Source: a bacterium (GTDB taxonomy: Bacteria > Orphanbacterota > Orphanbacteria > Orphanbacterales > Orphanbacteraceae). Taken from it: 64,000 bases of DNA. Shown one piece after another: positions 12,798-27,030 of the stretch. Location of the stretch: positions 862,232-926,231 of the forward strand of contig JALGYY010000017.1 of NCBI GenBank assembly GCA_025782575.1, written 5' to 3'. Every line of letters begins with the position of its first letter. Within the stretch, counting starts at the first letter, position 1. The translations under genes were made by a program, and so were the position numbers. The notes beneath the pieces were generated by a model that was not told where the DNA came from, searched no databases, and worked only from the letters and a program-made list of their open reading frames with translations.

Positions 12798-15700
12798 GTG
12801 GCAGAACATCGGCCCATTTCAGCCAGACTACTTGGATGCCCCCTTCTGTTCGGTTTCCTCCTCATGCTGGCCGGCTCCGGCTCGGTGGCCCAGGCCGCAT
12901 CGTGGTTCGATTCCGACTGGCAGTACCGTCAACTCATTACGATTTCCCCCAGTGTGACCAACTCTGATCTGACCGATTTCCCGTACATGCTGAAGATTAC
13001 TGATATCACGAACCCTCTCTTCGACAATGCCCAGATCGATGGCGATGACATCGTGTTAACCGCGGACGACGGCATATCCACGCTCGATCATGAGATCGAG
13101 TACTACGATAGCGTGGCTGAGACTCTCGTCGCCTGGGTTCGGATCCCGACACTCTCATCGACCGTGTCGACCGACATCTATATGTACTATGGCAATGGTT
13201 CTGTCTCTACTCAGGAGAACGTGCCCGGAGTCTGGAGCAACGGCTACGAAGCGGTCTATCACCTGCACGATGACTTCAACGATTCAAAAGGGAGCCATAA
13301 CGGCACCAACAGCGGATCGGCTGATGTGACAGGACAGATCGCCGATGGGCAGGATTTCTATCCGGATGACGGAGTTGACGAGATCTCGATCGGGAACTGG
13401 AACTTCACCGGTGATTCGCTCACCATCTCCGCCTGGATGAAATCCGACGACGGTTTCGCCCAGGACGATCCCCGTATTATCTCGAAAGCGAATTCGGGCA
13501 CTCCCGAGGATCACGTGTATATGCTGAGCCTGTATGATGGAACCATCAACGAGAACAGGCTTCGATTCCGCGTCAAGACCGGCTTGAGCGACACTCTCGG
13601 AATGACGGAGCTTCAAGGTAGCTCACCGAACGGGTATCTCCCCGATGCGGCCGAGTGGTATCTGGTCGCCGGGACATACGACGGGACACAGATGCGGCTT
13701 ATCCGTGACGGCCTGGATGCCGGAAGCACGGCTAAGACCGGGCTGATCCGGCAGAACGCATGGCCTTCCTATATCGGCAACAACACGGCCAACACGGACA
13801 CCGCGCTCTACTCATTCGACGGCAAACTCGATGAGGTGAGAATCGCATCAGCCGCACGATCACTTGACTGGATGGGCGCGAATTACCTCAGCCAGTCATC
13901 GCCGGCCTCCTATGTAACCCTGGGCGCCCCGGACACCTCGTACACGGTGGGCGGCAGGGTGTTCGAGGACGCCGACTTTACTGGCACGGCTTCGGACTAT
14001 GATGGCGGGACCGGCGACTCGGTGAGCTCGAATGTGGACGTGGAATTATATGACGCGAGCGATAGCACTTTCATCTCGTCAACTGTGACCGACGTCTCCG
14101 GAAACTATAACTTTGGCGGGCTCCTCAACGGGGATTATATCGTACGTGTCCGTTCGGTGACGATGGGTGACTCCGATACTAAGCCGGCGGGCGGGCTGAA
14201 CGGCACCGTTCCCGGAACTTGGCCATACCCCCATCCCGAGATGACCTGGGGGAATGGGGCAGCCGTCTACGGCGGGCAGAGCGCTACGGCGGACGACGCG
14301 GATACCGGAGACAATGCGGGGATCGGAGACACGCATCTGCCGGTGGCGGTAAGTAGTGGAGATGTAACCGGTGTCAACTTCGGCTTCGCCTACAACCTGA
14401 TCGTAAATACCGAGGACGACGGTCTCGCTGACAACACCCGCAGCGATCAGGGGAGTTTTCGGCAGTTCCTGAAGAACGCCAACGCCATCGGATCAGCGAG
14501 CGGCACCACGGCAAACAGCAGCGAGTTCCGGATGCAGGTTCCAGCCGTCGTCGTCGATGGTCCCGACAGTTGGTGGCGGTTTACCGCGACCGCTGTGAAC
14601 CCTCCGATCTCGGATGGGGGCACAACGGTCGATGGGTCGACGCAACGGGCGAATTCCGGTGCCGACTCGAATACAAGGGGTCCGGAGATCGAACTTTTCG
14701 GCAACGGAATCAGCGCCGTCGGCCTGACACTTTCCGGTGCGAACGAGGTGGTGCGGGAGCTGGCCATCAACGGGTTTGGAGGGACCGGCGTACTCGTGAC
14801 CAGCAACGGCGGGAGCACAATCGCCGGTTGTTACATCGGCACGAATGCCATCGGGACACTCGTCTCGGCGAACGATGGTTACGGGATCGAAATCCGGACC
14901 TCAGGGAATACGATCGGTGGAACGCTTGCCGGCGATCGGAATATCGTCTCCGGCAGCGGAATCGACGGGATCTACCTGAACGGAGCGACCGCCACCGGAA
15001 ACCAGATCCTCGGAAACTACATCGGGGTAAACGCCGCCGGAGACGGTGACTTCGGCAACGGCCAGCACGGTATTGTCGTCGAGGGCCCGGACAATCAAAT
15101 CGGGGGCGTTGCCGCCGGTGCTCGAAACGTAATATCCGGGAACACACGGTCTGCGATCTTTCTTACAGGAACCTCGGCCATGAACAATGTCATCCGGGGG
15201 AACTACCTCGGGACGGACGAAAGCGGAGTCTCGTCTATCGCGAATGACTGGGATGGTGTCACGATTCGTGCCGGTGCGACACAAGACACGATCGGTGGAA
15301 CGACCACCGAATCCAGGAACATCATTGCCGGAAACACGGAAGACGGAATCTACATCGGCGATGAAGCGAGCGACGGCCATGTGATCGAGGGAAACTGGAT
15401 CGGCGTTAATGCTCTGGGGAACCCGCTGGCGAACGGATGGCACGGTATCACGGTGGATCTCGGGGCGGACGCTTGCCGGATCGGCGGATCGGTGACTGGT
15501 GCGGGAAATGTCATCGCATCGAACGGGATGGATGGCGTGCGCATCATGACCGGCAGTCTGGGCAACTCCATACTCGGCAACTCCATTTACTCGAACTCGG
15601 AGCTCGGCATCGACCTGAACAACGACGATGTCACGCTGAACGACGACGACGATCCGGACACCGGGCCGAACAACTTCCAGAACTTCCCGGTCCTCACCTC

Positions 15701-16409
15701 GGTCGTCACGACCGGGAGCGGAAGCATCCTCATTGAAGGCACATTGAACAGCGTCGCGAGCGCCGACTACCGGGTCGAATTCTTCTCGAACGCCACTGCA
15801 GACGTATCCGGCTACGGCGAGGGGGAAACTTATCTTGGCGCCGACACGGTGACGACCGATGGCTTGGGGGACGTGAGCTTCAGCGTCACCCTCTCCGCCA
15901 CTGTCGGCGCCGGCGCCTATATCACAGCCACTGCCACCGATCCATCAGGCAACGCGTCCGAATTCAGCGCAACGACCACGGCTGTCCTCTACGTACCCGT
16001 GATTACCAAGAAAGCTTACTTTTCCGATGATTCCGCAGTACCGGACGGGGCGATTCTTCCCGCCGGTACCGAGATCAGATACCTGCTCTATGTCAACAAT
16101 CGCCTCACCGCGCGAAATGATGTTGTCCTCCAGGATGTCCTCGACCCCACATTCGCTTACGTGGGGGGGACGATCCTCTATGACAACAGCGTGGCGACAT
16201 GCGCCGGCGGAACGTGCACCACATCGGAAGAGTCGACTATTCTTGCTGCGGCTCTCGCGGGAACTGTCGGAACAGACGGGGTAGATGGTGATGTGGTGAG
16301 TTACACGGGCAGCACGTTGGATATAGGGGATGCGATCGTCGCCAATAACCAGTTGGATATTTTGGCTGAAAAAATCTGGGCGGTCGTCTTTACAGTGAAG
16401 ATCAACTGA
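12798..16409 (+). CDS. Large secreted adhesin-like protein: DUF2341, LamG/ConA-like lectin, SdrD/Cna-B-like, parallel beta-helix repeats, C-terminal DUF11-like domain
   Basis: GTG start with signal peptide ...LLMLAGSGSVAQA. The DUF2341 signature covers aa 38-135 (WQYRQ.ITI...DFP..L.I....DGDDI.....DG...L.HEIE.YD......VAWVRIP......IYMYYGN). A LamG-like block covers aa ~145-365 (...WYLVAGTYDG..MRL..DG...FDGKLDEVRI). A Cna-B/SdrD-like block follows (GGRVFEDADF...GNYNFGGLLNGDYIVRV). About 9 repeats of a 22-23-aa beta-helix unit (GN.IGG....RN.ISGN...GI.I) span aa ~640-935. The DUF11-like end covers aa 1068-1203. Confidence 0.85.
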   Translation: MAEHRPISARLLGCPLLFGFLLMLAGSGSVAQAASWFDSDWQYRQLITISPSVTNSDLTDFPYMLKITDITNPLFDNAQIDGDDIVLTADDGISTLDHEIEYYDSVAETLVAWVRIPTLSSTVSTDIYMYYGNGSVSTQENVPGVWSNGYEAVYHLHDDFNDSKGSHNGTNSGSADVTGQIADGQDFYPDDGVDEISIGNWNFTGDSLTISAWMKSDDGFAQDDPRIISKANSGTPEDHVYMLSLYDGTINENRLRFRVKTGLSDTLGMTELQGSSPNGYLPDAAEWYLVAGTYDGTQMRLIRDGLDAGSTAKTGLIRQNAWPSYIGNNTANTDTALYSFDGKLDEVRIASAARSLDWMGANYLSQSSPASYVTLGAPDTSYTVGGRVFEDADFTGTASDYDGGTGDSVSSNVDVELYDASDSTFISSTVTDVSGNYNFGGLLNGDYIVRVRSVTMGDSDTKPAGGLNGTVPGTWPYPHPEMTWGNGAAVYGGQSATADDADTGDNAGIGDTHLPVAVSSGDVTGVNFGFAYNLIVNTEDDGLADNTRSDQGSFRQFLKNANAIGSASGTTANSSEFRMQVPAVVVDGPDSWWRFTATAVNPPISDGGTTVDGSTQRANSGADSNTRGPEIELFGNGISAVGLTLSGANEVVRELAINGFGGTGVLVTSNGGSTIAGCYIGTNAIGTLVSANDGYGIEIRTSGNTIGGTLAGDRNIVSGSGIDGIYLNGATATGNQILGNYIGVNAAGDGDFGNGQHGIVVEGPDNQIGGVAAGARNVISGNTRSAIFLTGTSAMNNVIRGNYLGTDESGVSSIANDWDGVTIRAGATQDTIGGTTTESRNIIAGNTEDGIYIGDEASDGHVIEGNWIGVNALGNPLANGWHGITVDLGADACRIGGSVTGAGNVIASNGMDGVRIMTGSLGNSILGNSIYSNSELGIDLNNDDVTLNDDDDPDTGPNNFQNFPVLTSVVTTGSGSILIEGTLNSVASADYRVEFFSNATADVSGYGEGETYLGADTVTTDGLGDVSFSVTLSATVGAGAYITATATDPSGNASEFSATTTAVLYVPVITKKAYFSDDSAVPDGAILPAGTEIRYLLYVNNRLTARNDVVLQDVLDPTFAYVGGTILYDNSVATCAGGTCTTSEESTILAAALAGTVGTDGVDGDVVSYTGSTLDIGDAIVANNQLDILAEKIWAVVFTVKIN

Positions 16410-16442: not shown

Positions 16443-18296
16443 TCAGGAAACGACCGGTACCGATTCCGGTTCGATCCGATCCTTCTCGCCGACCTCCGGA
16501 AGAGATCGATCAACGGTCGGCATGGAAATTGTGAAGGTCGTCCCCTCACCCAGCTCGCTTTCGACTGCAATCTTCCCGCCGTGATCCTCGATTATCCCGA
16601 AGCTGACCGACAGCCCGAGACCGGTCCCCTTCCCCGAGCGCTTGGTCGTAAAGAAAGGCTCGTAGATTTTCCCCATCACTTCAGCGCTCATTCCCGGACC
16701 ATCGTCGGCCACCCGGAGCATCAACGAACCTGACTCACTGATGGCCGTGCTCACCGTAATGACTCCGGGCGCCCCGTCCATGGCCTGTTGAGCGTTGATC
16801 ATCAGGTTCATCACGACTTGCTGAAGCTGGTTCGCGTTGCCGCGTATCGGAAGCAGGCTCTCCCCGAGTTCCCGCCGGAGCTTGACCTGATTCAACTCGA
16901 GTTGGTGATTCACGATTGCGATAGCGTCTTCAACCACAGGATTGATTTCTATTGTCTCGAGCGTCGCCTTTTCCTGGCGAGCAAACCTCAGCAGATTATC
17001 AATGATCGATTTGCAGCGCTTCGTCTCTTTCTCGATCAGATCGAGGTTTTTTCGCAGAGGCGTTCCATCCTCTGACTTCCGCTTGGTGAGCTGCGTAACC
17101 GCCAGAATTCCCGCCAGCGGGTTCTTGATCTCGTGTGCAATGCCGGCTCCAAGTTGCCCGAAGGCCGCCATCTTCTCCGATTGAACGAGTTGAGAGTGGG
17201 CCTCTTCCAGGGCGGTGTCTCGCTCTTTGAGACCGGTCGTCATCCGGTTGAACGCCTGGGCCAGAGTGCCGACCTCGTCCCTGCTGCTGACGGCGACCGT
17301 GACGTCGAATTCACCCTTCGCGATCCGCGTGGTCGCGGAAGCGAGCTTATCCAGAGGTCGGGTGATCAGGGCCGAACCGAATGAACTGGTCAGAACAGCC
17401 AGAACCAGAAGCCCGAGCGCGATAATCAGGAGCTGCTTAAGCAGAGCGCGGGAAGCCATGTTCACTGCCGACCGCGGGATCTGAGCGCATACCGTTACGC
17501 CGCCCACTCCGGCGCTCGCGAAGCCTCCGATCATCAGACGATCGTCGATTTCGTAGACGAGCGTCACCCCTGCGCTGTGTTCATCGAGCCCTCCTTCCAC
17601 CTCCGAAGGGAATTCGATTCTCGCCCGTGCCCCCACTCCGGCAGGTTCCGAATCGGTAAGAAGCATTCCATTCGGACCCACTATCAGGATTTCGAATACC
17701 GGTGATCGTTCAGAAATCCGCCGAAGCCGTTCCGAGCGCGCCACGATCGAGATGATGAGAGACGTACCATCTTTTGATGGCGGCATCGCTTGCGCAAACG
17801 TGATCGTCGGCAGATCTTCGTGCAGCGTTGAATTCTCCAGCCAGATCTCCTTGGAGCCGGAGAGTCCGTCCGGGAAGGGATGGCTCAGGCGATATTCACG
17901 AAAGTCTTTCTCCGATAGTCCCCCGCCCACCAGGGTCGCCACGTCATAGACACCGGCGATTTCCTTCCCGTCCTTATGAAGTGTAACGGCAACCAGATCT
18001 TCAGCATCGGTGAAGAAATCCTTCAGAAGATTCCTTCTGCTATCCGCCGTCAGATCCGATTCGCCCATGAGGCGCCCGTACATCTGAAGGCGGTTCCGGT
18101 ATCCCGACAAGACAGATCCGCACTCTTCGGCGGAACTCATCGCCATGATCGATGCGAGATCGCTGATATAGGTCTCTTTATCCTCATGGAACATCTCTGC
18201 CATCGTAAAGGTGATCAGGCTGATCACGATCGTCACGATGGACAGCAAGGCAATCAGGATCTTGAGACGAATCGGAAAGCGCAGTCGGTTTTTCAT
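16443..18296 (-). CDS. Sensor histidine kinase with a periplasmic sensor domain (TM, ~250-aa periplasmic region, TM, HAMP, HisKA, HATPase)
   Basis: TM1 is ILIALLSIVTIVISLITF and TM2 is LLIIALGLLVLAVLTSSF. The HAMP region is ...ITRPLDKLASATTRIAKGEFD...LAQAFNRM, the H-box is AGIAHEIKNPL, and the ATPase boxes are NLMINAQQAM, DDGPGM and GTGLGLSV. GGGAGAAAGAG RBS. No response regulator is adjacent. Confidence 0.85.
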   Translation of the reverse strand: MKNRLRFPIRLKILIALLSIVTIVISLITFTMAEMFHEDKETYISDLASIMAMSSAEECGSVLSGYRNRLQMYGRLMGESDLTADSRRNLLKDFFTDAEDLVAVTLHKDGKEIAGVYDVATLVGGGLSEKDFREYRLSHPFPDGLSGSKEIWLENSTLHEDLPTITFAQAMPPSKDGTSLIISIVARSERLRRISERSPVFEILIVGPNGMLLTDSEPAGVGARARIEFPSEVEGGLDEHSAGVTLVYEIDDRLMIGGFASAGVGGVTVCAQIPRSAVNMASRALLKQLLIIALGLLVLAVLTSSFGSALITRPLDKLASATTRIAKGEFDVTVAVSSRDEVGTLAQAFNRMTTGLKERDTALEEAHSQLVQSEKMAAFGQLGAGIAHEIKNPLAGILAVTQLTKRKSEDGTPLRKNLDLIEKETKRCKSIIDNLLRFARQEKATLETIEINPVVEDAIAIVNHQLELNQVKLRRELGESLLPIRGNANQLQQVVMNLMINAQQAMDGAPGVITVSTAISESGSLMLRVADDGPGMSAEVMGKIYEPFFTTKRSGKGTGLGLSVSFGIIEDHGGKIAVESELGEGTTFTISMPTVDRSLPEVGEKDRIEPESVPVVS

Positions 18297-18315
18297 ATTC
18301 TCTTTCTCCCGATTT

Positions 18316-19578
18316 TCAGTACTTCGCCGAGATTATCTCGGACCGGTACGTTGTGTTCCCTACCCGGTCAAGTGCTTCGACCACGACAACATTCAAGCCG
18401 CGCTCGAGGGCGACTGTATCTTCAAAGAATCCCGCTCGATCCATGGATACTCTTACCTTCTGAATAAATACGATTGATCCTGGTTCCGCTTTCCCCCGAA
18501 GGACCAGGTGATCCGCGTTCACCGGGCCGGAGGGGAAATCGATCTGCAGCTTCGGCGCCACCATATCTCCGACGAGCCGGAAGCTGCGCGCCTGACTCGC
18601 CGACCCTTCGAGGTCGGCCGCAAGCCCGATCACCTTCCAGTAGTACGTCCCGCCGGTCAGATTGCCGAGAGTGTGTTCTTCTCCTCTGATTCTTGAATCA
18701 TAAACCACATTGCCGAATTTCTTATCTCGCGCAATCTGGAGGCGGTATGAGCCTGCCCCCTCCCCCTTCTTCCACTTGAGCCGGATCCGGGGCGGACTTT
18801 CGCGGTAGTAAGTGACATTCCCGTTGTCCGGTGCCAATAGAGTCGGTCGATCAGGAAGCGGGCTGACGAACACCGGCTCCTCGTCCTCCGAGGGCCCGAG
18901 AACGAGCGCTTCATTCGCCTTCAACGTGACGGTTTTCCCGTGGGAGGAGACCTCGGCCGTTCCTTCGTAAACCGAAATCGTGGCTGACTGATCGTCGTGA
19001 ACCACTATCCGGAATGAGGCATCTTCCGTACTGCCCTTGCTCGATCCGATCTCCGAAGTTCCGCCCGCCGTAACGACCTGGACAGTGAGAGCATCGGTAC
19101 CACCGCCGGAGATTCTCCCCCACAGCTCTCCTGAGAGCACCATCATCGATGCACGCCGTGATCGGTCGCCCTTCTCCGCTTTGTAATCCTTGATCACCAC
19201 CAGGGAGTTCTCCCCCAGGATGATCTCGCTCTCTTCACCAAAGGCGATCGTTGCCGCGGACTTCTCAAAGGTCTGAATCGCATGCTGCCGTCCGAGAGAC
19301 ATGCCTCCGTTGGACGATCCCCAGACAAGACCGTCGAATGGCTTGTCTTTTACTTTTCTCTGCACATCGGAGAGCGTGGCGACTTGAATCCATTCCTGGT
19401 CTGTCCGGGTAGACAGCTTTCCCGGGTTCACCAGTCCGAGAAGTCCGGAACCCTCCGGCAACAGAGCAGTCAGCATGCTAAGTAGCACAAGAAAGAAACC
19501 GACCACCAGTACGAGAGCGATCGTGATCTCCGTTACTCGCTGGACAATGCTGTTCACTCTCATCTTCTTGAGCCTCAT
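18316..19578 (-). CDS. Membrane-anchored FecR-domain protein with C-terminal Fn3/Ig-like domains
   Basis: Start chosen at ATG 19578 (MRLKKMRVNS...). It shares one base with the upstream TAA (TAATG). The TM anchor is ITIALVLVVGFFLVLLSMLTALL. The FecR-like block is ...ATIAFGEESEIILGENSLVVIKD...RISGG. An Fn3-like segment (PRIRLKWKKGEGAGSYRLQIARDKKF...GTYYWKV) and an Ig-like tail (LVLRGKAEPGSIVFI...GLNVVVVEALDRVGN) follow. Confidence 0.75.
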   Translation of the reverse strand: MRLKKMRVNSIVQRVTEITIALVLVVGFFLVLLSMLTALLPEGSGLLGLVNPGKLSTRTDQEWIQVATLSDVQRKVKDKPFDGLVWGSSNGGMSLGRQHAIQTFEKSAATIAFGEESEIILGENSLVVIKDYKAEKGDRSRRASMMVLSGELWGRISGGGTDALTVQVVTAGGTSEIGSSKGSTEDASFRIVVHDDQSATISVYEGTAEVSSHGKTVTLKANEALVLGPSEDEEPVFVSPLPDRPTLLAPDNGNVTYYRESPPRIRLKWKKGEGAGSYRLQIARDKKFGNVVYDSRIRGEEHTLGNLTGGTYYWKVIGLAADLEGSASQARSFRLVGDMVAPKLQIDFPSGPVNADHLVLRGKAEPGSIVFIQKVRVSMDRAGFFEDTVALERGLNVVVVEALDRVGNTTYRSEIISAKY

Positions 19579-22500
19579 TAGTACCATCCCTGTAATCTCA
19601 TGAACCAACCTCTCACCGAGTAGTCGTCCATGGAATACTCGTTATCGGAGAAGTCCGTGAAGTTGTAGCCCATCCCGAGTCGGAAGTTCTTCAGCAACGA
19701 CCAGGTCGCCTCATTCAACCAGCCCTTTCGATAGTCCTTCGCCTCTTCCTGGTGAAGGACCCTGTATTCCACGCCCAATCCGAGCTCCCGCCAGAGCCCG
19801 AGGTTGATTCTTTGGATGCCGAGGTAAGTGTGGGTCGTTACATCCGGGCGATCTTCGATCTTCTCATTCTTGATTCTCGCCGCTCCCTTTCCAAACCATT
19901 CGATACGTGGATGCACTTCGGCAACAAGTTCCACGGAAACAACGTCCATCCGTTTCTCATCCCGATCCATCTCGGCAAGAGCGCCGGGACGCATATCAAA
20001 GAGGTGGGAATAGCGGGCGAGCGCGTTCACTCGGTCGTGGCCGACCGGCCGATAGGCGAAGCCGATCGTCCGTTCTTCGAGACGGGCCTCGTCCTCATCC
20101 CGCTCCCTGTCGCGGGTCTTGCTGAATCGATAGACCCCGAGGAAAGAAAAATCGGGGGAGATCTTGAGATCGATTTGATTAACCGTAAAGTACTGGATCC
20201 GGTCCGCAATTCCGTTTTCGTACCTCACTTCATGGCGGGAACTGGCCTTGATGTTCCGCGTGTCGGAGTAGGCAATGCTTCCCGAGAGTGCGTTTCTCTC
20301 CGAACTCAGGCTGTCGGCATCTACTTGGGAAGTTTCGCCGCCGAGCAGTAGTTTAAGGCCCGGTCCGATCTCCCACTGGCGCTGTATCCCCATGAGAGAA
20401 ACGCGGCGGTCTCCGCTTCGAGTGTTCACCCATTGATACTCACTGTAGATACGGCTTCCCTTGGCGAACCGGGACTCACCTCCGAAGACCGTGGAAGTTT
20501 GATCGTCTCCCCCGCCGTTCAGAACCCTCTCAGTCAGATAGACGCGGCTATCGCCGATTGCCAGCGCGGCGCCGGCACGGCCCGACCGCCCACGCGTTCC
20601 CTCGGTTCCCTCCGCGTCGAGGGAGAGCGAGGGGAGAAGCTGATACGTCAGACCCAAAGTAGTCTGATCATTCTCGGGCCCGGAAAACGTCTGCTGGCGC
20701 TCCACCCGGCCTGAGATTTTCTCATTCGCGTTCGCGCTCAGCTTGACCGCGCCGAACTGGTTGTTCTCCAGGGAATTCCCGTCCCGATCTTCAGAGATTG
20801 AGCGAAGGTATTCCGCGCCGAATCCCCACCGGTCCGCGGCGTGACTCCACTGCACGGACCCGACGGTTTTCCTGGCCACCGTTCCCGCGCTCAGGGAGTC
20901 GGCCGTGAGATCTTCCTGATCGGTCCGCAAGCGCAGCGCCGACCGATCGGTCAATAGAAGCTCTCCGCTCACCCCGACCTTACGTGTACCTCGCTCCTGG
21001 AAGTTCCCGCTCGACTGGAACCCGGCCTCGAGCTCCTTCAGGTATGCCTTGATCAAGTATTTGTCGGGCTTCCGAATCCACTCACCCAGATCGATTTCGG
21101 CCGCCGCTTTCCAGGCCCGGCCCTGACGGGCGCCTTCTGGAGTGACCTCACGGTAGCTGAGCCCCCCATCGCTACTCACGAAGGTCGGTGAATCGGTTCC
21201 TTCCGTCTCCGCGAGCTCCGCCATGATTCGTGAGTTCTCACCTAACCGGATTTCCGCATCCGCCCCTTCCAGGAGGTACTGACCTGATTCGAGCTGATCG
21301 TCCACGTAGGTCGCGCCGACGGAGACTCGATCGCCGAGCTGGCGACGGCCTCGTGCCCCGAACGCATTCTCCTGGAAGAAATCGGCCCTGACCTCGTACT
21401 CCACCTCGATGAAGATCGGATCCCCGGATAGGATTTCCCGGTCCACCAGGTCTCCATCCGGTTCGACACTCGAGATCGGGCGCCGGAACATGATCCGGCC
21501 TTCCTCATACTTGATGGTGTAATCGAAATTCTGCTGTTGCGTCTCCCGTCGGAGAACGAGCCCCGTAATTTTGTCCCGCACCACAAGCGTGACCTGCTCG
21601 CTCCCCTCGATCAGATCGGAGTGACTCAGGTAGTAGAGAGAGCCGCCCGTCCCGGAGAGTTCGTCCCGCACGTGGAGCTGCCTCAGCTCCGCTCCGAAGA
21701 ACACGATCTCTGTGTCAGGTTTCCCGAAGCGTGTCTTGGAAGCGGATCGGTAAGTGGCCTGGCCGCCGTAGAGTGTCCTCCGGTAGGCGGCCAGCTCGGT
21801 GTCCGAGAGCGACAGCGGATAGTTCCCGACCAGAATTCCGATCTCGTCGCTCTCCAGAGCGAGATAGAACTTTCCCTGGCTCTCGCCGTCATAAGTCACG
21901 GAACTCGCATCCCCATAGACGGGGTAGAGCTTGTCAGGATCGAGGTTAGTCAGTAACCGCTCGGTTTTACCCAGGTCGATGTTACGGAAGATACCTTCAT
22001 AGCGATCCTTCTCGCTGTCAAAGGCGGACGTGACGAGATACTTGCCCGCGATGACCCCTTTGAGATAGAACGCAGCTCTTCCTTCCACGTAGAAGGTTCG
22101 TCCATCATCTACGCCGGTTCCTTCCAGGTGTCCCCTTCCGATGTACTCGCCGATCCGCCCCTCCGCAAAAGCGAGCAGGAAGAGTTCGTTCCGTGCCACA
22201 TCGATTTCCCTCTCGATGATTCCGTTACGTCCTTCCGGATCGGTTACCTGAACGGTAAGCAGACTCTTTCCGCGGGGCAGTTCGACGACCCCGTAGAAGC
22301 GGCCGTCTTCCTGGACCTCCAGAGATTGCCCGTTCGCCCGGACCTGGTTCTTCGGTTCCGTCTTCCCTGTGATCCGGAGATGAGCCGTGCTGAGCCGGAC
22401 GCCCGGCGGCGGAAGATCGACGGTAAGTATGGGGATCGCCTCGGCAATGATGAGAGCGTTCCCATCGCCATCCACGTCCGAGGCCAGTAGATCGACGTTG

Positions 22501-25016
22501 ACGATTCTCGATGCGCCCTGCGCGTTTTCTACGAGAATGCCACAGACATTGTGCCCGAGTGACAGCGGGAGTAGAGCCTGGAAATCCCCGCTCGAATTGA
22601 CGGGGATCTCGACCCCGTCAATCAGCAGTCTGTTCCCCGGGTTCGTCCGTCCCTTCAACCGGCACTCCACCAGCGGACTCTCCGAACCGCTGGCGGCGAT
22701 CCGGAACGAGCGGGACGAATCGCCATAGGCAAGACGTTGTTCCTGACGGGGGCTCGTGATTCCGATATGGGGTAGATGGATCGTCCCGCCGACATGCCTG
22801 TCTCCCGACCGGGCGATCTCCACTTCCAGAATGTCCGTTCCGTCATCATCAATCCGAGCGGTGAAGCGTCCGAGTTCGTCTATGGGCAGCGCCACGTCGT
22901 TGATCGACACCTGGGGGCTGGCCTCCGGCGTCTCCAATTCTTCCTGGATCACGACCGGGTGGTCCTGCTCCTCATTCTCCGAGGTTCTACCGGCCGCAAC
23001 CGTCCGGCTTTCCCCGTACCTGCGAATGCTGATCTGATCACCAGGGACCTCTAAGACCTCGGTAAGGTAGGCCGCAGTCGCCTCGGCCATCTTCCTGGAG
23101 TTCTGAGGGTCGTGATACGCGAATCCGGCTCGGTCGGTCTGTCCCTCGATCACGAAGTTCTCGTCCGGATGTTGCCGGATGAACCGGGCTCCCTCTCGGA
23201 GAGCCCGCTTGGCGGTCTCACTCAGGTCGGCCAGGTTTGCATCGAACGCATTTCCTGTCAGTCTGAGTATGGAGGTCGGCTTGCTATCCCCCCCGAAGCT
23301 CCTGCCGGAGTTCTCGGTGGTGATCCTGTCCGGAGAACGAACCTCCACCCGGTACTGATACCCTTCGCCCGCCTCGACACTCTCGTCCCGATCGGGGCGC
23401 ACCGCTGACGAGGTCGTCTCAGCATGTAATCCCTCGCCCTCGATCTGCCTTGTGGCACCGAGAGAGGAAGGGCTCGTTCTCAGGCCATTCTTGTTCGGCA
23501 ACAGAATCCGTTTCCCGTTCACCAGGATGGAAAGTGTCTCGACACTGCCGACGATATCGACCGGGAGGTTTCGCGCATCGGTGCGGATGGAGACGCCCAG
23601 TTCCGCCGGCTTACCGATACCGACCGATTCACCCTCGTATTGAACTCCGAAGCTCGCCTTCGCCATGAGTCCGGGCGTCACCCAGAGTACCCGGCTCTCA
23701 CCGTTCGTCGCTGAAGCGACTGTGGCCAGGCTGTTCAGATTGATTTTCACCATGCGCTGGCCGGGCCTGACGGCGGGGAAGTGATACCGTCCGTCGCCGT
23801 CCGTAATGGCGTACGTGCCGTTGTCGAGGGCGATCATCACTCCGGGAATGCCAAGCTCTCCGTCATCCTGCCGGCCATCGGAATCTTGATCCTCGAAGAC
23901 CTTTCCTATGATCGTGCTGAGATCGAAATCGGGATCCAGGGTGATCGTGACTTCCGCGCTCGCTTCGTTCGACACCAGACAGGAATCGCAATAATCCTTG
24001 GCGACTACACTGTTCCGATAGACTCCGGGCATCGCTCCTGAACCGACGACCAGTTGATACCGGAGCTCCAGGTACCCGGGCTCGTCGGGATCGATGCTCC
24101 CGTCACCATCCACGTCATCCCAGGCGGGAACTGTCCCGATCCGGAAGAGGGCGGGCCGTCGGCCGATCGGGTCGATCAGTCGCCTGCCGGCCAGAGTGGC
24201 GCTTCCTTCGATCAGTTTGAATCCCGCCGGGAATCGGTCTTCCAGCGAGACATCGACCACTTCGAATTCGGCGGTGTTTCGAATCAGCACGGTGTAGGTG
24301 ACCACATCTCCTACAATGCCGTACTTTCGATTCGCTTCTTTCTCGAGTTCGAGAACGGCGAGTTGGGGTTTCACAACCTGCACGACAAAGTCGTTGAAGT
24401 TGTTCGCCTCTCCATCCGCATTTCCGGGAGTCATGGATTGAGCGAGCTCATGATCCCCCGCGATTGATGAGAATGTCCCGAATCCCGCAGTGTCGGGGGC
24501 GGTTGCTCTGAACCGGATTTCGATCGGGGTCCCGGAGACCGTCACTTTGCTGCCGAACGAAATGGTCATCAGCGATTCACTCACCGTCGCCGAATACGTT
24601 TCGGGATCTTGAGCGGGGTTTTTGTTTCGCAACCTCGCTTCCCCGTAACGGACACCCTCGATCTCCACATCCCTGTACCCCCGTGGGATCAGAATGCGGA
24701 TGTGACGAATACCGGAATGATCCGCCATCATCGTCGGCATGACCGTGTAGGTGAACTGATTGCGCATGCTCGATACGAGGATTCGATTCGGTTTGATCTC
24801 AGCGACGATCGCCTCTGCCACCGCGCTCGATCGGTTCAGCGAAACCTGTGCCGTATCAGCGAAAGTGATTCCGTTCGCTCCTCCTGTGAATTCGTTCCGG
24901 ATCGTATCCGCCGGAGCGAGTCGTGGTGAGACGCACAGAGCAACCAGAACCAGAGCGGACAGAATACCCCCTCTCTTCAGGGCGAAGCCGGCGGTATGTC
25001 CGATGAATCGTCGCAT
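19578..25016 (-). CDS. Giant outer-membrane protein: unknown N-domain, DUF11, SdrD/Cna-B-like, OmpA-like, two Ig-like modules, then a C-terminal beta-barrel of about 870 aa
   Basis: 1812 aa with signal peptide ...ALVLVALCVSPRLAPA. DUF11 covers aa ~218-360 (LELEKEANRKYGIVGDVVTYTVLIRNTAEFEVVDVSLEDRFPAGFKLIEGS). A Cna-B/SdrD-like block covers aa ~366-460 (IIGKVFEDQDSDGRQDDGELGIPGVMIALDNGTYAITDGDGRYHF). The OmpA-like module covers aa ~585-690 (FVIEGQTDRAG...NSRKMAEATAAYL...RRYGES). From aa ~945 there are continuous amphipathic beta-strand patterns ending in ...GMGYNFTDFSDNEYSMDDYSVRGWFMRLQGWY. Confidence 0.85.
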   Translation of the reverse strand: MRRFIGHTAGFALKRGGILSALVLVALCVSPRLAPADTIRNEFTGGANGITFADTAQVSLNRSSAVAEAIVAEIKPNRILVSSMRNQFTYTVMPTMMADHSGIRHIRILIPRGYRDVEIEGVRYGEARLRNKNPAQDPETYSATVSESLMTISFGSKVTVSGTPIEIRFRATAPDTAGFGTFSSIAGDHELAQSMTPGNADGEANNFNDFVVQVVKPQLAVLELEKEANRKYGIVGDVVTYTVLIRNTAEFEVVDVSLEDRFPAGFKLIEGSATLAGRRLIDPIGRRPALFRIGTVPAWDDVDGDGSIDPDEPGYLELRYQLVVGSGAMPGVYRNSVVAKDYCDSCLVSNEASAEVTITLDPDFDLSTIIGKVFEDQDSDGRQDDGELGIPGVMIALDNGTYAITDGDGRYHFPAVRPGQRMVKINLNSLATVASATNGESRVLWVTPGLMAKASFGVQYEGESVGIGKPAELGVSIRTDARNLPVDIVGSVETLSILVNGKRILLPNKNGLRTSPSSLGATRQIEGEGLHAETTSSAVRPDRDESVEAGEGYQYRVEVRSPDRITTENSGRSFGGDSKPTSILRLTGNAFDANLADLSETAKRALREGARFIRQHPDENFVIEGQTDRAGFAYHDPQNSRKMAEATAAYLTEVLEVPGDQISIRRYGESRTVAAGRTSENEEQDHPVVIQEELETPEASPQVSINDVALPIDELGRFTARIDDDGTDILEVEIARSGDRHVGGTIHLPHIGITSPRQEQRLAYGDSSRSFRIAASGSESPLVECRLKGRTNPGNRLLIDGVEIPVNSSGDFQALLPLSLGHNVCGILVENAQGASRIVNVDLLASDVDGDGNALIIAEAIPILTVDLPPPGVRLSTAHLRITGKTEPKNQVRANGQSLEVQEDGRFYGVVELPRGKSLLTVQVTDPEGRNGIIEREIDVARNELFLLAFAEGRIGEYIGRGHLEGTGVDDGRTFYVEGRAAFYLKGVIAGKYLVTSAFDSEKDRYEGIFRNIDLGKTERLLTNLDPDKLYPVYGDASSVTYDGESQGKFYLALESDEIGILVGNYPLSLSDTELAAYRRTLYGGQATYRSASKTRFGKPDTEIVFFGAELRQLHVRDELSGTGGSLYYLSHSDLIEGSEQVTLVVRDKITGLVLRRETQQQNFDYTIKYEEGRIMFRRPISSVEPDGDLVDREILSGDPIFIEVEYEVRADFFQENAFGARGRRQLGDRVSVGATYVDDQLESGQYLLEGADAEIRLGENSRIMAELAETEGTDSPTFVSSDGGLSYREVTPEGARQGRAWKAAAEIDLGEWIRKPDKYLIKAYLKELEAGFQSSGNFQERGTRKVGVSGELLLTDRSALRLRTDQEDLTADSLSAGTVARKTVGSVQWSHAADRWGFGAEYLRSISEDRDGNSLENNQFGAVKLSANANEKISGRVERQQTFSGPENDQTTLGLTYQLLPSLSLDAEGTEGTRGRSGRAGAALAIGDSRVYLTERVLNGGGDDQTSTVFGGESRFAKGSRIYSEYQWVNTRSGDRRVSLMGIQRQWEIGPGLKLLLGGETSQVDADSLSSERNALSGSIAYSDTRNIKASSRHEVRYENGIADRIQYFTVNQIDLKISPDFSFLGVYRFSKTRDRERDEDEARLEERTIGFAYRPVGHDRVNALARYSHLFDMRPGALAEMDRDEKRMDVVSVELVAEVHPRIEWFGKGAARIKNEKIEDRPDVTTHTYLGIQRINLGLWRELGLGVEYRVLHQEEAKDYRKGWLNEATWSLLKNFRLGMGYNFTDFSDNEYSMDDYSVRGWFMRLQGWY

Positions 25017-25018
25017 AC

Positions 25019-25630
25019 CTACTTCACCCTCACTCTGAAACGGATCAACAGATCGGATTGCCCGGGCAAGTCGAGAACCTGATTAGCCTGGTCGGGAACT
25101 GTTCCCACAGTAATGAGCGCCGTGCCTGGTCGATCCTCATACTCCTGATACGAGGCGATATCATCCGGAGACCCTTGGATATCGGTCACAGGTATCCACC
25201 CGGAGGACCAGATGGCCCCATCGTCAGCAGCGTTGGAAACGACCGTGTACTCGATGCTCTCTGGGATGTACGTGAAAGCGGTCAGATCAAGAACGTCGGA
25301 GATGCGGATGTCATGTACTGAATAGAGAGTAGTGTTGCCTACGGAGAGGAGAAAGAAGATCTCTTCACCAGGGGCAACGTTCGACCCCTCAGGCAAGACG
25401 ATCCCCTTCAGATCAAGCGCCTGCTTTCGCAGAGCGAGATCTACCGATTGGATCTCGAATTTCGCGGACCCCGTCCCATCACCACCCAGTAAGGTGCCGT
25501 TGCTGATACCACCGATTCCTCCGAACACGGCATTCGTTGCAGCGAAAGCCGGTGGCGGTATCCCAACAAGCATCCACCCGGCAGTGACGATCAGGCATAG
25601 GGCCACACGCCGAGCCAGGGCAACACTCAC
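25019..25630 (-). CDS. Small secreted DUF11-like subunit B
   Basis: GTG start with signal peptide ...VGIPPPAFA|ATNAVFGG... A Gly-rich N-terminal segment of about 30 aa is followed by one DUF11-like domain (APGEEIFFLLSVGNTTLYSVHDIRISDVLD..FTYIPES ... LLIRFRVRVK). The stop lies 2 nt before the start of the 1812-aa gene. Confidence 0.7.
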   Translation of the reverse strand: MSVALARRVALCLIVTAGWMLVGIPPPAFAATNAVFGGIGGISNGTLLGGDGTGSAKFEIQSVDLALRKQALDLKGIVLPEGSNVAPGEEIFFLLSVGNTTLYSVHDIRISDVLDLTAFTYIPESIEYTVVSNAADDGAIWSSGWIPVTDIQGSPDDIASYQEYEDRPGTALITVGTVPDQANQVLDLPGQSDLLIRFRVRVK

Positions 25631-25858
25631 ATCGATTTTCCTACAGCCAGGTTCCTCGCGAGTTACGGACGCGTCGCTTTGACCGGGTGAGTCCGCACCA
25701 GGCGAACTCTCCCTCGCACAACAACTCTCCGCATCCCGGAGGGAGTAGCGTCATGTCTTCTCCGTGCAGACCGAATTGGCCCAGCACGGCAACCATGGAT
25801 TCCAGCTCGGAGCGACAGGGATCAGCAATTACAGCCCCCCTCACTCCATGGCCGTCAA

Positions 25859-26434
25859 CTAGTCCACGGTCGCCTCAAAGAGAACCACCCAGACATTCCC
25901 GGCTGCGATATCGAGTTGCAGGTTCCCCGGCAATCCAAGACTGACAGTTCCGGCACTCTCTCCCCCGACATCGGTGCTGTTCACAGGATCGAGGAGCGCG
26001 GTGTTGCCTTCGACAGCCGCCCAGATGGCCGCTTCCGTCGCGCCGGTCGCAAGGGTGTTGTCCACGCGAATGGAACTGGACACGTATGTAAACCCGGTTA
26101 ACGGATCCGATACGCGAATATCAGAGACGGGCACGCCAGTGCTGTTGTCGATATAGATCATGAACCCCACGACTGTACCGGAAGGGATGTTGGCACCCGG
26201 GCTCAGCTGTGTTCCGTCGGTAAGAAACGCCGTCTTCACAAGAGCGAGTGTGTCGGAGTTCAAAGTGAAAATATTTGAGTTCACAAGATCCGCATCAACA
26301 CCTGCAATACTACCGGTTGCCTGGTTAGTAGCCGCCGTCGCTGTTGAAACCGTCAGAAAACTGACAGAAATGACTACGATCAGCAGCAAGGGGAGGCGAA
26401 TCAGACTGGGTCCACGTATGAAGCCCGTTTTCAT
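25859..26434 (-). CDS. Small secreted DUF11-like subunit A
   Basis: Start moved to ATG 26434 (AAGGAGA RBS). The signal peptide is ...LTVSTATA|ATNQATGS... One DUF11-like domain follows (IPSGTVVGFMIYIDNSTGVPVSDIRVSDPLTGFTYVSSS ... NVWVVLFEATVD). It is a paralogue of subunit B and of the adhesin C-terminus. Confidence 0.7.
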   Translation of the reverse strand: MKTGFIRGPSLIRLPLLLIVVISVSFLTVSTATAATNQATGSIAGVDADLVNSNIFTLNSDTLALVKTAFLTDGTQLSPGANIPSGTVVGFMIYIDNSTGVPVSDIRVSDPLTGFTYVSSSIRVDNTLATGATEAAIWAAVEGNTALLDPVNSTDVGGESAGTVSLGLPGNLQLDIAAGNVWVVLFEATVD

Positions 26435-27030
26435 TTTCTTTAATCTCCTTTTACGAACAAAGAATACAAATAGTCGATGTCCGGTACGTTGCATCCCATA
26501 GCTGAGGGAAAAGCCGTATCGAACTACCGCGATTTGATATCAGAGAAGATTCACTCGCTTCCGCGCATTCCTCATGCCGACGAACATGCCGATCCTCCTT
26601 TCCGGTCTAAAAAATGAGCCGGACACGACGACGACGGAGAGCACATATCTCCTCATTTCCTTGTATCGGAAGAAGTTAGGGTTTACATGACCCGATGCTC
26701 CGCTGGAAAACCCGACCCGGGATTTGTCTGGAAATGTGAGTTGTTCAGGGGCTGAGATCAGCGATGGATCGGGAGATTTCTAGCGCGCGAGAGACTCTAT
26801 GTCGTTGAATTCATTCATGATGCGGGAAAAGATCGCCGCGGGGAGCTCGATGTCCGGCCCCATTTACCGACAAAAAAAACCCCCGGTCGGTCATGCATCG
26901 CCCATCTCCTGCCCTCCCACGACATGAACGAACGCGCTGCCCAACACGGGGGTAAGAAGTGTTCCTCTTCCCGTAAACGACTATACGAATGCTTTGGAAA
27001 AAGTGTCAACGGGCGGCAGGCTCGGAGGAG

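Follow-up and report, generated by a model that had tools for sequence, protein, structure and literature searches.

We asked whether five closely spaced minus-strand open reading frames (ORFs) in a 64,000-nt stretch of DNA from a diderm bacterium (the window) encode a machine that assembles a fibre on the cell surface, as the original prediction had proposed. The ORF listing and searches of Pfam and NCBIfam agreed with the predicted coordinates and domains of all five genes, which encode two small subunits (A and B), a giant protein, a FecR-like protein and a sensor histidine kinase (Table 1). Subunits A and B are indeed small, if slightly longer than the ~180 aa first proposed. The boundary of the locus had to be moved, as the convergent gene for a secreted protein, T, which had been left out, belongs to it as a sixth part.

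Table 1. Features of the locus, with positions in the window
Feature	Position	Strand	Description
T	12798-16409	+	1203 aa, secreted; DUF2341, LamG, SdrD_B, beta-helix-like repeats (Pfam)
Sensor histidine kinase	16443-18296	-	617 aa; 19-nt gap after FecR-like gene
FecR-like protein	18316-19578	-	420 aa, membrane-anchored: N-terminal TM helix, FecR, C-terminal Ig
Giant, whole protein	19578-25016	-	1812 aa; ATG 2 nt past TAG of B
Giant, module order	19578-25016	-	Extension, N-domain, CLIPPER, SdrD_B, FlgD-like Ig, OmpA, Ig domains, barrel
Giant, barrel-like region	19578-22184	-	aa 945-1812, ~868 aa; ends ...RGWFMRLQGWY
Giant, OmpA-like peptidoglycan-binding domain	22968-23246	-	aa 591-683; PF00691, 47 bits (cut-off 27.2)
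Giant, CLIPPER (DUF11) + SdrD_B module	23697-24353	-	aa 222-440 (Pfam, NCBIfam)
Giant, mature N-terminal extension	24837-24911	-	aa ~36-60, ADTIRNEFTGGANGITF...; motif as in A and B
Subunit B	25019-25630	-	203 aa; GTG start; own extension type (AATNAVFGGIGGISNGTLLGGDGTG...); paralogue of A
A-B spacer	25631-25858	-	228 nt, structured
Subunit A	25859-26434	-	191 aa; signal peptide, ~26-aa extension (AATNQATGSIAGV...), CnaA/CLIPPER-like domain aa 61-191
Promoter candidate, sigma-70-like	26980-27009	-	TTGACA-18-TATAGT; consensus match only

The B/giant junction (2 nt) and the giant/FecR-like junction, where the ATG at 19578 overlaps the TAA of the giant gene (TAATG; an alternative TTG lies upstream at 19608), show tight translational coupling in the window. 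Subunit A starts at the ATG at 26434, with an AGGAG motif 9 nt before it (a longer ORF, to 26494, is less likely), and the promoter candidate, which matches 11 of 12 consensus positions, sits immediately past cysS, ~545 nt upstream of A. The A-B spacer folds at -107 kcal/mol (z = -3.4 versus shuffles), contains one terminator-like hairpin (25741-25727) and may, by prediction, set the A:B expression ratio. As had been anticipated, no Pfam or NCBIfam model for PapD, PapC, sortase, POTRA, autotransporter or T9SS proteins matched the locus proteins or their flanks; nor did we find there any chaperone, usher or sortase, any component of a T1SS, T2SS, T5SS or T9SS, or any other export or assembly component.

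T ends in the domain that A and B are built from. Its residues 1069-1203 match the A-domain HMM (E = 1e-31) and are 31% identical to A across the whole A domain, down to the last residue, and within the window this "A-type" domain is found in T, A and B and in no other protein. T orthologues lie directly upstream of A at five loci (L001, L008, L010, L022 and L031), and T-type proteins have variable N-terminal parts but always carry the A-type domain at the extreme C terminus. T is a candidate tip adhesin of lectin type. A and B are paralogues (34% identity), of which A is the candidate major fibre subunit and B a candidate adaptor or minor subunit. About 150 homologues of A were found, 175-210 aa long and none of them named, while B orthologues adjoin the giant on its upstream side in eight full loci.

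The description of A and B as single DUF11-like sandwiches held for A, which gave a weak TIGR01451 match (E = 0.0035, NCBIfam) and a CnaA/pilin-type model, but B had no TIGR01451 match in the same search. In the AF2 model of A the domain is well defined (pLDDT ~90) and the extension is modelled as disordered (pLDDT below 50). The domain is a complete CnaA-like sandwich and not, as had been entertained, an Ig fold with a missing strand; no strand is obviously absent, which gives no indication of classical donor-strand complementation. Its closest folds are the Gram-positive backbone and basal pilins EbpB, RrgB and PilB. Invariant among A homologues are K67, D110 and N171 in the domain and N37, G41 and G45 in the extension; in the model, the first three form a probable Lys-Asp-Asn triad for an internal isopeptide bond, a triad also found in CLIPPER domains (10.1101/2025.04.25.650565). 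A ends in ...EATVD and B in ...VRVK, and neither contains an LPXTG or pilin motif.

A second element links the small subunits to the giant. In A, B and the giant alike, the motif N-x-A-T-G-x-x-x-G comes immediately after the signal peptide, and an alignment of 28 giants gave the extension consensus A-x-x-[IL]-x-N-x-A-T-G-T-x-x-G; the motif is absent from T. Giants carry it in 8 or 9 of the nine loci having A and B and in none of the ten lacking them (including L014 and L023, both of the close subfamily), an association over ~19 loci that is partly confounded by phylogeny. In one locus (L009) the giant is directly fused to a B-type extension. This distribution fits a polarity running from tip to subunit to anchor.

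The C-terminal ~870 aa of the giant had been read as a very large beta-barrel. The AF2 model is consistent with this, being all-beta (pLDDT 83, pTM 0.67) with 41 strands ≥8 aa long as counted by DSSP; many of the strands are only weakly amphipathic, and the C terminus is aromatic. The region also lies outside any curated family: residues 945-1812 had no sequence match in Pfam, NCBIfam or the PDB, and Foldseek returned only generic large outer-membrane barrels (ushers, SprA, LptD and MtrB) at TM ≤0.25. Its own family comprises at least 3,000 clusters (3035 related, 50% identity), in which the region is nearly always C-terminal in adhesin-like proteins of 900-7,600 aa. Relatives have the barrel either in the same polypeptide as an adhesin or encoded by the next gene after one; these adhesins range from 2,500 to over 4,400 aa and cannot be periplasmic. 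Where adhesin and barrel are separate genes, the split falls at the boundary between SdrD_B and the peptidoglycan-binding domain or right after OmpA. The barrel region is a candidate translocon and anchor.

Upstream of the barrel, Pfam and NCBIfam identified a DUF11/CLIPPER domain (aa 222-277; TIGR01451, 41 bits, cut-off 24), an SdrD_B domain (aa 372-440) and a Glucodextran_B-type Ig domain (aa 862-939), and the OmpA-like profile matched many solved OmpA-like domains (E = 1e-27 and weaker). CLIPPER and SdrD_B domains are typical surface-stalk modules (10.1101/2025.04.25.650565). Of 82 loci, 73 encode this pair together with the barrel, and the pair is conserved along with it family-wide, sitting in split systems at the end of the adhesin gene upstream of the barrel. 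In other phyla the equivalent of this stalk is thousands of residues long and sometimes a gene of its own, so that, by comparison with these relatives, the N-terminal part of the giant would itself be an adhesin stalk. The original prediction had set an assembly platform against a peptidoglycan-anchored adhesin; given the stalk nature of this region in relatives, both descriptions are probably true and need not exclude each other.

The same A-B-giant-FecR-like-kinase order was found in Nitrospirota, Acidobacteriota, Desulfobacterales and Gammaproteobacteria, extending to T-A-B-giant-FecR-like-HK(-RR-GGDEF), with the receiver-GGDEF end usual. Thus the five families, whose association outside the source genome the original prediction had left to be checked, do co-occur across phyla, and to judge from the same order in many unrelated genomes the cluster is no chance juxtaposition. 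Against a fibre role, A and B are present in only 8 of 13 close-subfamily loci with sufficient upstream flank, and in L002, two unrelated small proteins occupy their position. Most of the ~3,000-cluster barrel family is without A and B, consisting of a single adhesin-barrel giant or of successive genes for adhesin and barrel.

Together, these observations lead us to favour, tentatively, a model in which six genes (seven in most other genomes) build, anchor and probably monitor a surface fibre composed of the tip adhesin, repeated A, B and the N terminus of the giant, which would thread through the barrel as its anchor, be tethered to peptidoglycan and perhaps be coupled to the kinase and c-di-GMP. 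The giant would be the platform, with its C-terminal region forming an outer-membrane barrel of ~40 strands and its OmpA-like domain the tie to peptidoglycan; its extension, N-domain, CLIPPER and SdrD_B would exit via the barrel as a short stalk. Because the OmpA-like domain lies mid-chain, the polypeptide must, we assume, cross the outer membrane once via the lumen. The fibre proteins would share the A-type domain, A (extension plus domain) being the repeated subunit and its paralogue B the adaptor. T has the domain at its C terminus without an extension, so it would be placed at the tip; the giant has an extension and no A-type domain, so it would be the chain end and anchor. Each extension may dock on the A-type domain of its tip-side neighbour by strand donation or augmentation, possibly with a covalent lock, and the chain would be threaded outward tip first. 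The pilus-like logic of the original prediction is strengthened by the A/B-type domain ending T and by the common extension motif.

An alternative, which we consider unlikely, is a dedicated secretion system that makes no fibre: folded cargo, with T as the real cargo, would pass through the barrel as translocon, the A-type domain would mark proteins at their C terminus for export or attachment, much as the T9SS CTD does, and A and B would be small cargo or non-polymerizing cell-surface coat proteins. Such a system would suit the position of the A-type domain at the extreme C terminus of every otherwise variable T protein, a barrel in the size range of SprA (an exporter of folded proteins) and the completeness of the modelled A domain. 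However, A and B consist of little beyond the "tag" and a strongly conserved extension, a C-terminal tag leaves unexplained why the platform bears an extension motif that occurs together with A and B, and T9SS-type CTD models had no match in Pfam or NCBIfam. Also improbable is that the giant functions alone as an adhesin and outer membrane-peptidoglycan tether (autotransporter-like passenger, peptidoglycan-binding domain and barrel), with A, B and T co-regulated yet physically independent surface or matrix proteins. The original prediction already offered this alternative, and the lack of A and B in most of the barrel family favours it, but the translational coupling, the conserved gene order, the motif common to the giant and A/B and lost where they are absent, and the L009 fusion all argue against it.

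Chaperone-usher pili (Fim, Pap; FimD/PapC, FimC/PapD) also combine small secreted beta-sandwich subunits bearing a conserved N-terminal extension, a large outer-membrane barrel flanked by Ig-like domains, and a tip adhesin of two domains, lacking an extension, that joins a receptor-binding part to a C-terminal subunit domain; FimH and PapG are built as T-type proteins are, and tip-first polarity can be read from whether a protein is donor, acceptor or both. They differ in that our locus and its flanks have no PapD-like chaperone or PF00577 usher, the usher has 24 strands against ~40 in the predicted barrel (FimD and PapC matched at TM ~0.2), their Ig fold lacks strand G whereas the sandwich here is a complete CnaA/CLIPPER type with a probable isopeptide, and the platform here has its own extension, stalk and peptidoglycan-binding domain. 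Sortase pili (RrgB, EbpB, SpaA-type) supply the best structural matches to the A-type domain, with its CnaA-type fold and Lys-Asp-Asn triad, and divide roles among tip adhesin, backbone and basal subunit, but the present organisms are diderm, have no LPXTG, sortase or pilin motif here, and would anchor the fibre by a barrel and an OmpA-like domain.

CLIPPER (DUF11) fibrillar adhesins with an OmpA-like anchor, such as Acinetobacter silvestris B9T28_05395 (10.1101/2025.04.25.650565), join a CLIPPER and SdrD_B stalk to a peptidoglycan-binding domain in one surface protein, and the relative from Halopseudomonas (L065) shows just this arrangement, with a barrel gene next; the barrel partner, small trans-encoded subunits, extension motif and signalling arm are not described in that work, and the cis stalk here is very short, with an apparent supply in trans. 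Type V secretion likewise unites passenger and barrel in one polypeptide, and inverse autotransporters share a periplasmic peptidoglycan-binding domain and the Big_1/Invasin_D3 domains present in many giant homologues, but T5SS barrels have 12-16 strands and belong to PF03797 or PF11924, neither of which matches the giant, whose ~870-aa barrel region comes with no POTRA domain. Type IX secretion has a very large single-chain barrel (SprA, 36 strands; a weak Foldseek match) and cargo whose N-terminal part varies while its C-terminal beta-sandwich domain is conserved, but its component and CTD models had no match here, the phyla are mostly outside Bacteroidota, and the present barrel is fused to adhesin and peptidoglycan-binding modules. 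In archaeal thread filaments (Saci_0406), subunits are processed by Sec/SPI, have strictly conserved residues after the cleavage site and are joined by an N-terminal tail through an Asn-based intermolecular isopeptide without a sortase (PMC9715654). Processing, post-cleavage conservation, a linking tail (proposed here) and independence from sortase would be common to both, but in the archaea there is no outer membrane or barrel, the unrelated head fold genuinely lacks one strand, and a covalent link is here a possibility.

The FecR-like protein and the kinase, joined elsewhere by a receiver-GGDEF cyclase, may constitute a signalling arm that spans the envelope and is coupled to the platform. 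FecR proteins receive signals from outer-membrane barrels, as in FecA-FecR. The predicted FecR and Ig domains were recovered (FecR, aa 111-218, 24.5 bits against a cut-off of 24.0, Pfam; Ig, aa 352-429), and the latter is homologous to the pre-barrel Ig domain of the giant, with cross-matches between them. Of 22 close-subfamily loci with sufficient flank, 18 have the FecR-like gene directly 3' of the giant, as do all four more distant Acidobacteriota loci. The kinase has two TM helices, HAMP, HisKA and HATPase_c domains (Pfam, NCBIfam), and its periplasmic sensor of ~250 aa matched no known family in these databases; in 17 loci the gene after the FecR-like one encodes this sensor domain, and in at least 12 a receiver-GGDEF gene, absent from the window, comes next. 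A signalling role together with the conserved kinase (and a diguanylate cyclase elsewhere) is more likely for the FecR-like protein than the assembly-partner or chaperone role first suggested. That the giant's N-terminal domains, A and B all stay periplasmic, in an envelope-spanning sensor or structural complex reading envelope or peptidoglycan state through the FecR-like, HK and GGDEF proteins, is very unlikely: the periplasm-facing OmpA-like domain, FecR-like partner and kinase and the barrel-to-FecR precedent would suit it, but at the equivalent position relatives have adhesin repeats (Big_9, cadherin, He_PIG and DUF11) that run to thousands of residues, the LamG and beta-helix modules of T are typical of extracellular binding proteins, and CLIPPER and SdrD_B are typical of surface stalks.

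We found no publication on this system in the literature and, as the original prediction held, it appears undescribed, its barrel having neither a curated family nor a solved relative. Taken together, these data suggest that the cluster looks like a machine, unrelated to known pilus and secretion machinery, that would build and anchor an adhesive surface fibre.

The locus is a real, conserved and uncharacterized feature, and on an entirely computational basis we consider it probably a new kind of surface-fiber or adhesin machinery. All five minus-strand open reading frames of the original prediction were recovered where it had placed them: those for the small secreted subunits A and B, for the 1812-aa barrel protein (the giant), for its membrane-anchored FecR-like partner, and for a sensor histidine kinase. 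Pfam and NCBIfam bore out its domain calls for the last three proteins. The assignment of A and B to DUF11, now named CLIPPER, held only weakly for A (E = 0.0035) and found no match by sequence for B; the two are paralogues with 34% identity. We rejected the proteins as lipoprotein or type V pilus precursors, as a lipobox cysteine is present in none of them and the cysteine in the giant signal peptide is not conserved.

Features of the fiber locus and its surroundings in the window
Feature	Coordinates	Strand	Description
A	25859-26434	-	ORF; ATG with AGGAG 9 nt upstream
B	25019-25630	-	ORF; GTG start
Giant	19578-25016	-	ORF, 1812 aa; ATG 2 nt after stop of B
Giant domains	aa 222-277; aa 372-440; aa 591-683; aa 862-939		DUF11/CLIPPER; SdrD_B; OmpA; Glucodextran_B-type Ig (Pfam/NCBIfam)
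FecR-like	starts at 19578	-	ATG inside TAATG; FecR at threshold and C-terminal Ig domain (Pfam/NCBIfam)
Kinase	16443-18296	-	ORF; 19-nt gap before gene; HAMP, HisKA, HATPase_c (Pfam/NCBIfam)
T	12798-16409	+	1203 aa, secreted; convergent with operon
Hybrid histidine kinase	10552-12591	+	three receiver domains; adjoins T; convergent with operon
Sigma-70 promoter candidate	26980-27009	-	near-consensus TTGACA-18-TATAGT (11/12)
Leader following from promoter candidate	26435-26980		~545 nt, upstream of A
Hairpin and T-run	near 26870-26890		resembles cysS terminator
A-B spacer	25631-25858	-	228 nt
TMEM260-like protein O-mannosyltransferase	28986-31418	+	810 aa, C-terminal TPR repeats
Sigma-54 activator	5768-8914	-	1,049 aa, TPR-containing
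DUF6588 protein	2932-3849	-	

The promoter candidate lies directly after cysS and would give the operon an unusually long leader. The operon has one gap of appreciable size, the spacer between A and B; its predicted fold is more stable than that of shuffled sequence (z = -3.4), and it may act in processing or attenuation to keep A high relative to B. Two genes from the operon, beyond cysS, is the TMEM260-like gene, whose place next to the system is not conserved in two homologous loci from other genomes (L001 and L002). The sigma-54 activator and the DUF6588 protein are encoded upstream of the T side of the locus.

The gene families co-occur elsewhere, in the same order and across several phyla; the conserved succession of A and B, giant, FecR-like protein and kinase in other genomes thus speaks against an arrangement peculiar to this one, an outcome under which the original prediction was to be abandoned. 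In the closest subfamily (barrel E ≤ 1e-150), the giant is directly followed by the FecR-like gene in 18 of the 22 loci whose downstream sequence is long enough, as it is in all four more distant Acidobacteriota loci. In 17 closest-subfamily loci a kinase sharing the periplasmic sensor comes next, and in at least 12 a receiver-GGDEF gene comes after the kinase; no such gene stands beside the kinase in the window. Both A and B lie upstream of the giant in 8 of the 13 closest-subfamily loci with enough upstream sequence, and three further loci have one of the two at a contig edge. These loci come from Terriglobia, Nitrospirota, Desulfobacterales, Ca. Tenderia, Steroidobacteraceae and Woeseiaceae, and small proteins of the A type, all of 175-210 aa and none named, are also found in metagenome-assembled genomes (MAGs) of Gemmatimonadota, Eisenbacteria and Phycisphaerae. 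In L002, a close-subfamily locus, proteins of 288 and 328 aa (7654-8520 and 8517-9503) occupy the A/B position; they have no match to the A-type domain HMM or in Pfam, and judging by sequence may be a non-homologous or very divergent replacement.

The best fold matches of the A domain are the Gram-positive sortase pilins EbpB, RrgB, PilB and RrgA (probability ~0.99, weak E-values), and its profile matches the Cna collagen adhesin; for TTHA1873, another fold match, we found no informative literature. Residues K67, D110 and N171 of A are invariant in 24 sequences and align with the Lys-Asp-Asn isopeptide triad described for CLIPPER domains (10.1101/2025.04.25.650565); by model and alignment, the A domain is of the CnaA/CnaB pilin type, with a candidate intramolecular isopeptide triad. 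A scores 17.3 bits against the TIGR01451 cut-off of 24 and B matches neither PF01345 nor TIGR01451, and we therefore treat both as divergent CLIPPER relatives rather than as members by curated threshold. A subunit fold lacking a strand had been raised as a possibility. In the monomer model the A domain appears complete, which would speak against classical donor-strand complementation; the conserved N-terminal extension is present there as a disordered segment. Docking of this tail, if it occurs, may proceed by edge-strand augmentation or in a mode that a monomer model hides.

In other genomes, A is preceded by a gene for a large secreted protein that matches both A and T, the 1203-aa lectin-type protein of the window, which adds a sixth component to the system. 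T carries a signal peptide, DUF2341, LamG, SdrD_B and beta-helix-like repeats, and its C-terminal domain is 31% identical to the whole A domain, through to the last residue. A search of the 64-kb window with the A-type domain HMM returned exactly three proteins, A, B and T, and among T orthologues the N-terminal parts differ while the A-type domain ends them all. We rejected T as a TafC member: its 24 bits fall far below the cut-off of 410, and the match covers the LamG region of the haloarchaeal Tat-fimbria protein alone. Elsewhere T is co-directional with A and upstream of it, and L001 has a kinase/receiver pair between the two; the opposite orientation of T and the adjoining hybrid kinase in the window points to a local inversion.

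A, B and the giant share one motif directly after the predicted signal-peptidase site: AA-D-N-T-A-T-G-D-I-A-G... in A, AA-T-N-A-A-T-G-G-I-G-G... in B, and A-x-x-I-Q-N-x-A-T-G-T-x-x-G... in the giant. Its Asn and two Gly residues are invariant in the A family, and in the AlphaFold model of A, residues 30-60 are disordered (pLDDT < 50) ahead of a domain (aa 61-191) at ~90. Tails that work between molecules typically combine such conservation with apparent disorder. The motif is found in the giants of eight or nine of the nine loci that encode A and B, and in those of none of the ten loci without A and B, including the close-subfamily loci L014 and L023. T proteins are without it, and the giant is without an A-type domain. 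From this distribution of motif and domain, T would have an acceptor domain only, A and B a donor tail plus an acceptor, and the giant a donor tail only, the same layout as that of FimH, FimA and FimI in type 1 pili. One MAG locus (L009, 884-6481) encodes a giant with a B-type extension (AATNAVTGGIGGIDNGTLRGGDGTG...) fused straight onto Big_1-type repeats, and looks as if the B tail had moved to the platform and the B domain had been lost. We also considered the invariant Asn as a PglB glycosylation sequon and rejected it, since on inspection the acidic residue lies at -1, not -2.

The motif distribution and the minimal form of A and B bear on two other readings of the locus. The first is a secretion system that forms no fiber and uses the A-type domain to tag its cargo. 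It recalls type IX secretion, with which the window system has in common a large barrel and a C-terminal cargo domain but none of the signatures; no T9SS CTD, SprA, PorV or PorU was matched by Pfam or NCBIfam in the proteins or flanks. A cargo tag accords poorly with where the motif is found and with subunits that are minimal, and we think it unlikely. The second reading is a self-sufficient, barrel-anchored adhesin to which the accessory proteins are not attached; the same two observations weigh against it and make it improbable. Among described objects, those closest to the window system are CLIPPER fibrillar adhesins with an OmpA-like anchor, for which neither a barrel partner nor subunits in trans are reported.

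The original prediction had placed a very large beta-barrel at the C-terminus of the giant. An AlphaFold2 model of aa 700-1812, built on an alignment with 64 homologues (mean pLDDT 83, pTM 0.67), consists of Ig-like sandwiches followed from ~aa 944 by an unbroken up-and-down beta meander, in which we counted 41 strands of at least 8 residues; about 40 is thus a model-based estimate. A Foldseek search of the PDB with the barrel (aa 945-1812) returned solely generic large outer-membrane barrels, at probability 1.0 and low TM-scores (~0.25 or less overall): MtrB, LptD, TonB-dependent receptors, SlpA, FimD/PapC (TM 0.15-0.31) and SprA (weak, TM 0.10). Neither Pfam, even at E = 0.1, nor NCBIfam gave a match to this region, and a profile search of PDB sequences matched the OmpA and SdrD parts alone, with none for the barrel. 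The family ends in an aromatic residue, Y or F (...GWFxRxQGxY or ...FVRMTGKF). With only generic barrels matched, at low TM-scores, the region looks like a candidate outer-membrane barrel outside any solved family. SprA, with 36 strands, is the largest solved single-chain barrel among the fold matches. Barrels of 38 strands are so far predicted only (PMC9388160), and a 2026 survey of strand counts set aside 38- and 40-strand labels as rare or unlikely (10.64898/2026.03.07.710327).

Ahead of the barrel, the OmpA-like domain scores 47 bits against the PF00691 cut-off of 27.2, with profile matches to solved OmpA-like domains down to E = 3e-27, and the CLIPPER domain scores 25.1 bits against 24.6 (PF01345) and 41 against 24 (TIGR01451). 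Four homologues (P0003, P0004, P0036 and P0037) carry three to five tandem copies of the N-terminal domain of the giant (~200 aa, no Pfam family, conserved AEI-P motif), which therefore appears to serve as a stalk repeat by itself. We rejected the idea that this domain is an A-type domain copied in cis, hhalign finding no similarity (probability 0.1).

Searched with phmmer against 1.84 billion representatives at 50% identity, aa 945-1812 matched 3,035 clusters at E ≤ 1e-3, of which 1,154 reach E ≤ 1e-30; the matching proteins are 900-7,612 aa long and almost always have the matched region as their very C-terminal part. Scanning one genome per species located at least 560 barrel loci, in Nitrospirota, Acidobacteriota, Omnitrophota, Myxococcota, Planctomycetota, Bdellovibrionales and Gammaproteobacteria; carriers include cultured Stenotrophomonas and Halopseudomonas pelagia, and MAGs assigned to Arenimonas, Kangiella and Trichlorobacter. 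Source names for giant homologues are limited to "OmpA family protein," "DUF11 domain-containing protein" and "TIGR01451 repeat protein." The CLIPPER-SdrD_B module accompanies the barrel in 73 of 82 loci, and N-terminal of it relatives carry up to >4,000 residues of adhesin repeats (Big_9, cadherin-like, He_PIG, DUF11). That the locus encodes a periplasmic envelope sensor is very improbable in the light of such giant adhesin arrays.

In several genomes, the giant is split into two adjoining genes, at points that flank the peptidoglycan-binding domain on either side: a 3,057-aa adhesin ending in DUF11-SdrD_B and a 1,221-aa barrel protein in Stenotrophomonas, and a 2,561-aa adhesin ending in OmpA and a 1,235-aa barrel protein in Halopseudomonas. 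The split barrel protein of the Trichlorobacter MAG (L057, 894-5528) starts with a SPOR and then an OmpA-like domain, and therefore has two different peptidoglycan-binding modules ahead of its Ig domains and barrel. Because the N-terminal parts of these relatives are so large, everything N-terminal of the peptidoglycan-binding domain would be extracellular and the chain would cross the membrane through the barrel. In three Omnitrophota loci (L047 6209-8143, L048 6615-8189 and L066 6379-8124), a protein of 525-645 aa with no Pfam match always precedes the barrel protein, itself of 1,560-1,750 aa; it ends in ...FGVKFS.RRF/Y, resembling a second outer-membrane barrel, and may be a different partner in that lineage.

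The signatures of PapD, PapC, sortase, T2SS, T5SS/POTRA and T9SS that had been reported missing were also absent from Pfam and NCBIfam searches of the proteins and flanks. Chaperone-usher pili follow a similar logic, but membership fails because neither the six proteins nor ten flanking ORFs include a PapD-like chaperone (PF00345/PF02753), because there is no Pfam match to a PapC/FimD-type usher (PF00577, 24 strands with a plug, versus ~41 predicted for the barrel), and because the subunit fold differs. That fold is shared with sortase pili, whereas the window system has no Gram-positive wall, no sortase match in the locus or flanks, and no LPXTG-type signal (A, B and T end in ...EATVD, ...VRVK and ...TVKIN). 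The passenger-plus-barrel idea is common to type V secretion, but type V parts (12-16-strand PF03797, PF11924; Omp85 with POTRA) were not matched, nor were T1SS or T2SS parts in the proteins or flanks. The FecR domain of the FecR-like protein scores 24.5 bits against 24.0, its cytoplasmic tail is ~15 aa, and its conserved neighbor is the HAMP kinase, with no ECF sigma factor gene adjoining; the protein thus departs from FecR-type anti-sigma factors, in which an N-terminal anti-sigma domain is paired with a neighboring ECF sigma factor gene. The nearest precedent for the conserved extension is in archaeal threads, where a conserved post-cleavage tail links subunits, with an Asn-based isopeptide (PMC9715654). 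A search of the literature on DUF11/CLIPPER with outer-membrane systems, very large barrels and diderm isopeptide pili turned up no description of the system.

The composition and conservation of the locus, the common domain and motif with their distribution, and the barrel-like model are what the analysis shows. For topology, export route, polymerization, subunit order and signaling, we infer a tip-first fiber, a reading we put at somewhat under an even chance as a whole. The giant would be a peptidoglycan-tethered outer-membrane platform whose own short stalk emerges through its own barrel. T, repeated A, and B would be chained by extension-to-domain contacts and threaded out tip first, the extension of the giant terminating and anchoring the chain. 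The FecR-like protein, the kinase and, elsewhere, the diguanylate cyclase would form a signaling arm; the C-terminal Ig domain of the FecR-like protein is of the same type as the Ig domain preceding the barrel in the giant, which suggests contact between the two.

A bolder form of this fiber reading, which we regard as doubtful, is a new class of diderm surface-fiber machinery that works without chaperone, usher, sortase or ATPase. The conserved tail would link CnaA-like, isopeptide-stabilized pilins and a lectin tip into a head-to-tail chain, its Asn possibly locking the links covalently (compare archaeal threads and split Catcher/Tag pairs). That chain would pass, tip leading, through a single-chain barrel of ~40 strands, which would exceed every solved barrel in size, and would end on the N-terminus of the peptidoglycan-bolted barrel protein, with fiber tension reported through the FecR-like protein to the kinase and diguanylate cyclase. 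The family of ~3,000 clusters would then be a general, so far unrecognized route by which giant CLIPPER adhesins pass through the outer membrane and stay fixed to it.

For most phyla outside model Proteobacteria there is, to our knowledge, no settled account of how very large Sec-dependent adhesins of folded, isopeptide-locked Ig-like domains traverse the outer membrane and remain fixed there. The ~870-aa C-terminal barrel, which belongs to no curated family and has at least 3,000 clusters at 50% identity, is a specific and widespread candidate for this crossing and attachment. As the stalk in the window is seemingly supplied in trans by small subunits, the locus offers a compact set of six genes in which assembly, polarity and anchoring can be studied. 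Confirmation would bring a new class of pilus or secretion system, a single-chain barrel larger than any other known, a candidate route from mechanosensing to c-di-GMP, and perhaps a natural Catcher/Tag-like ligation pair.
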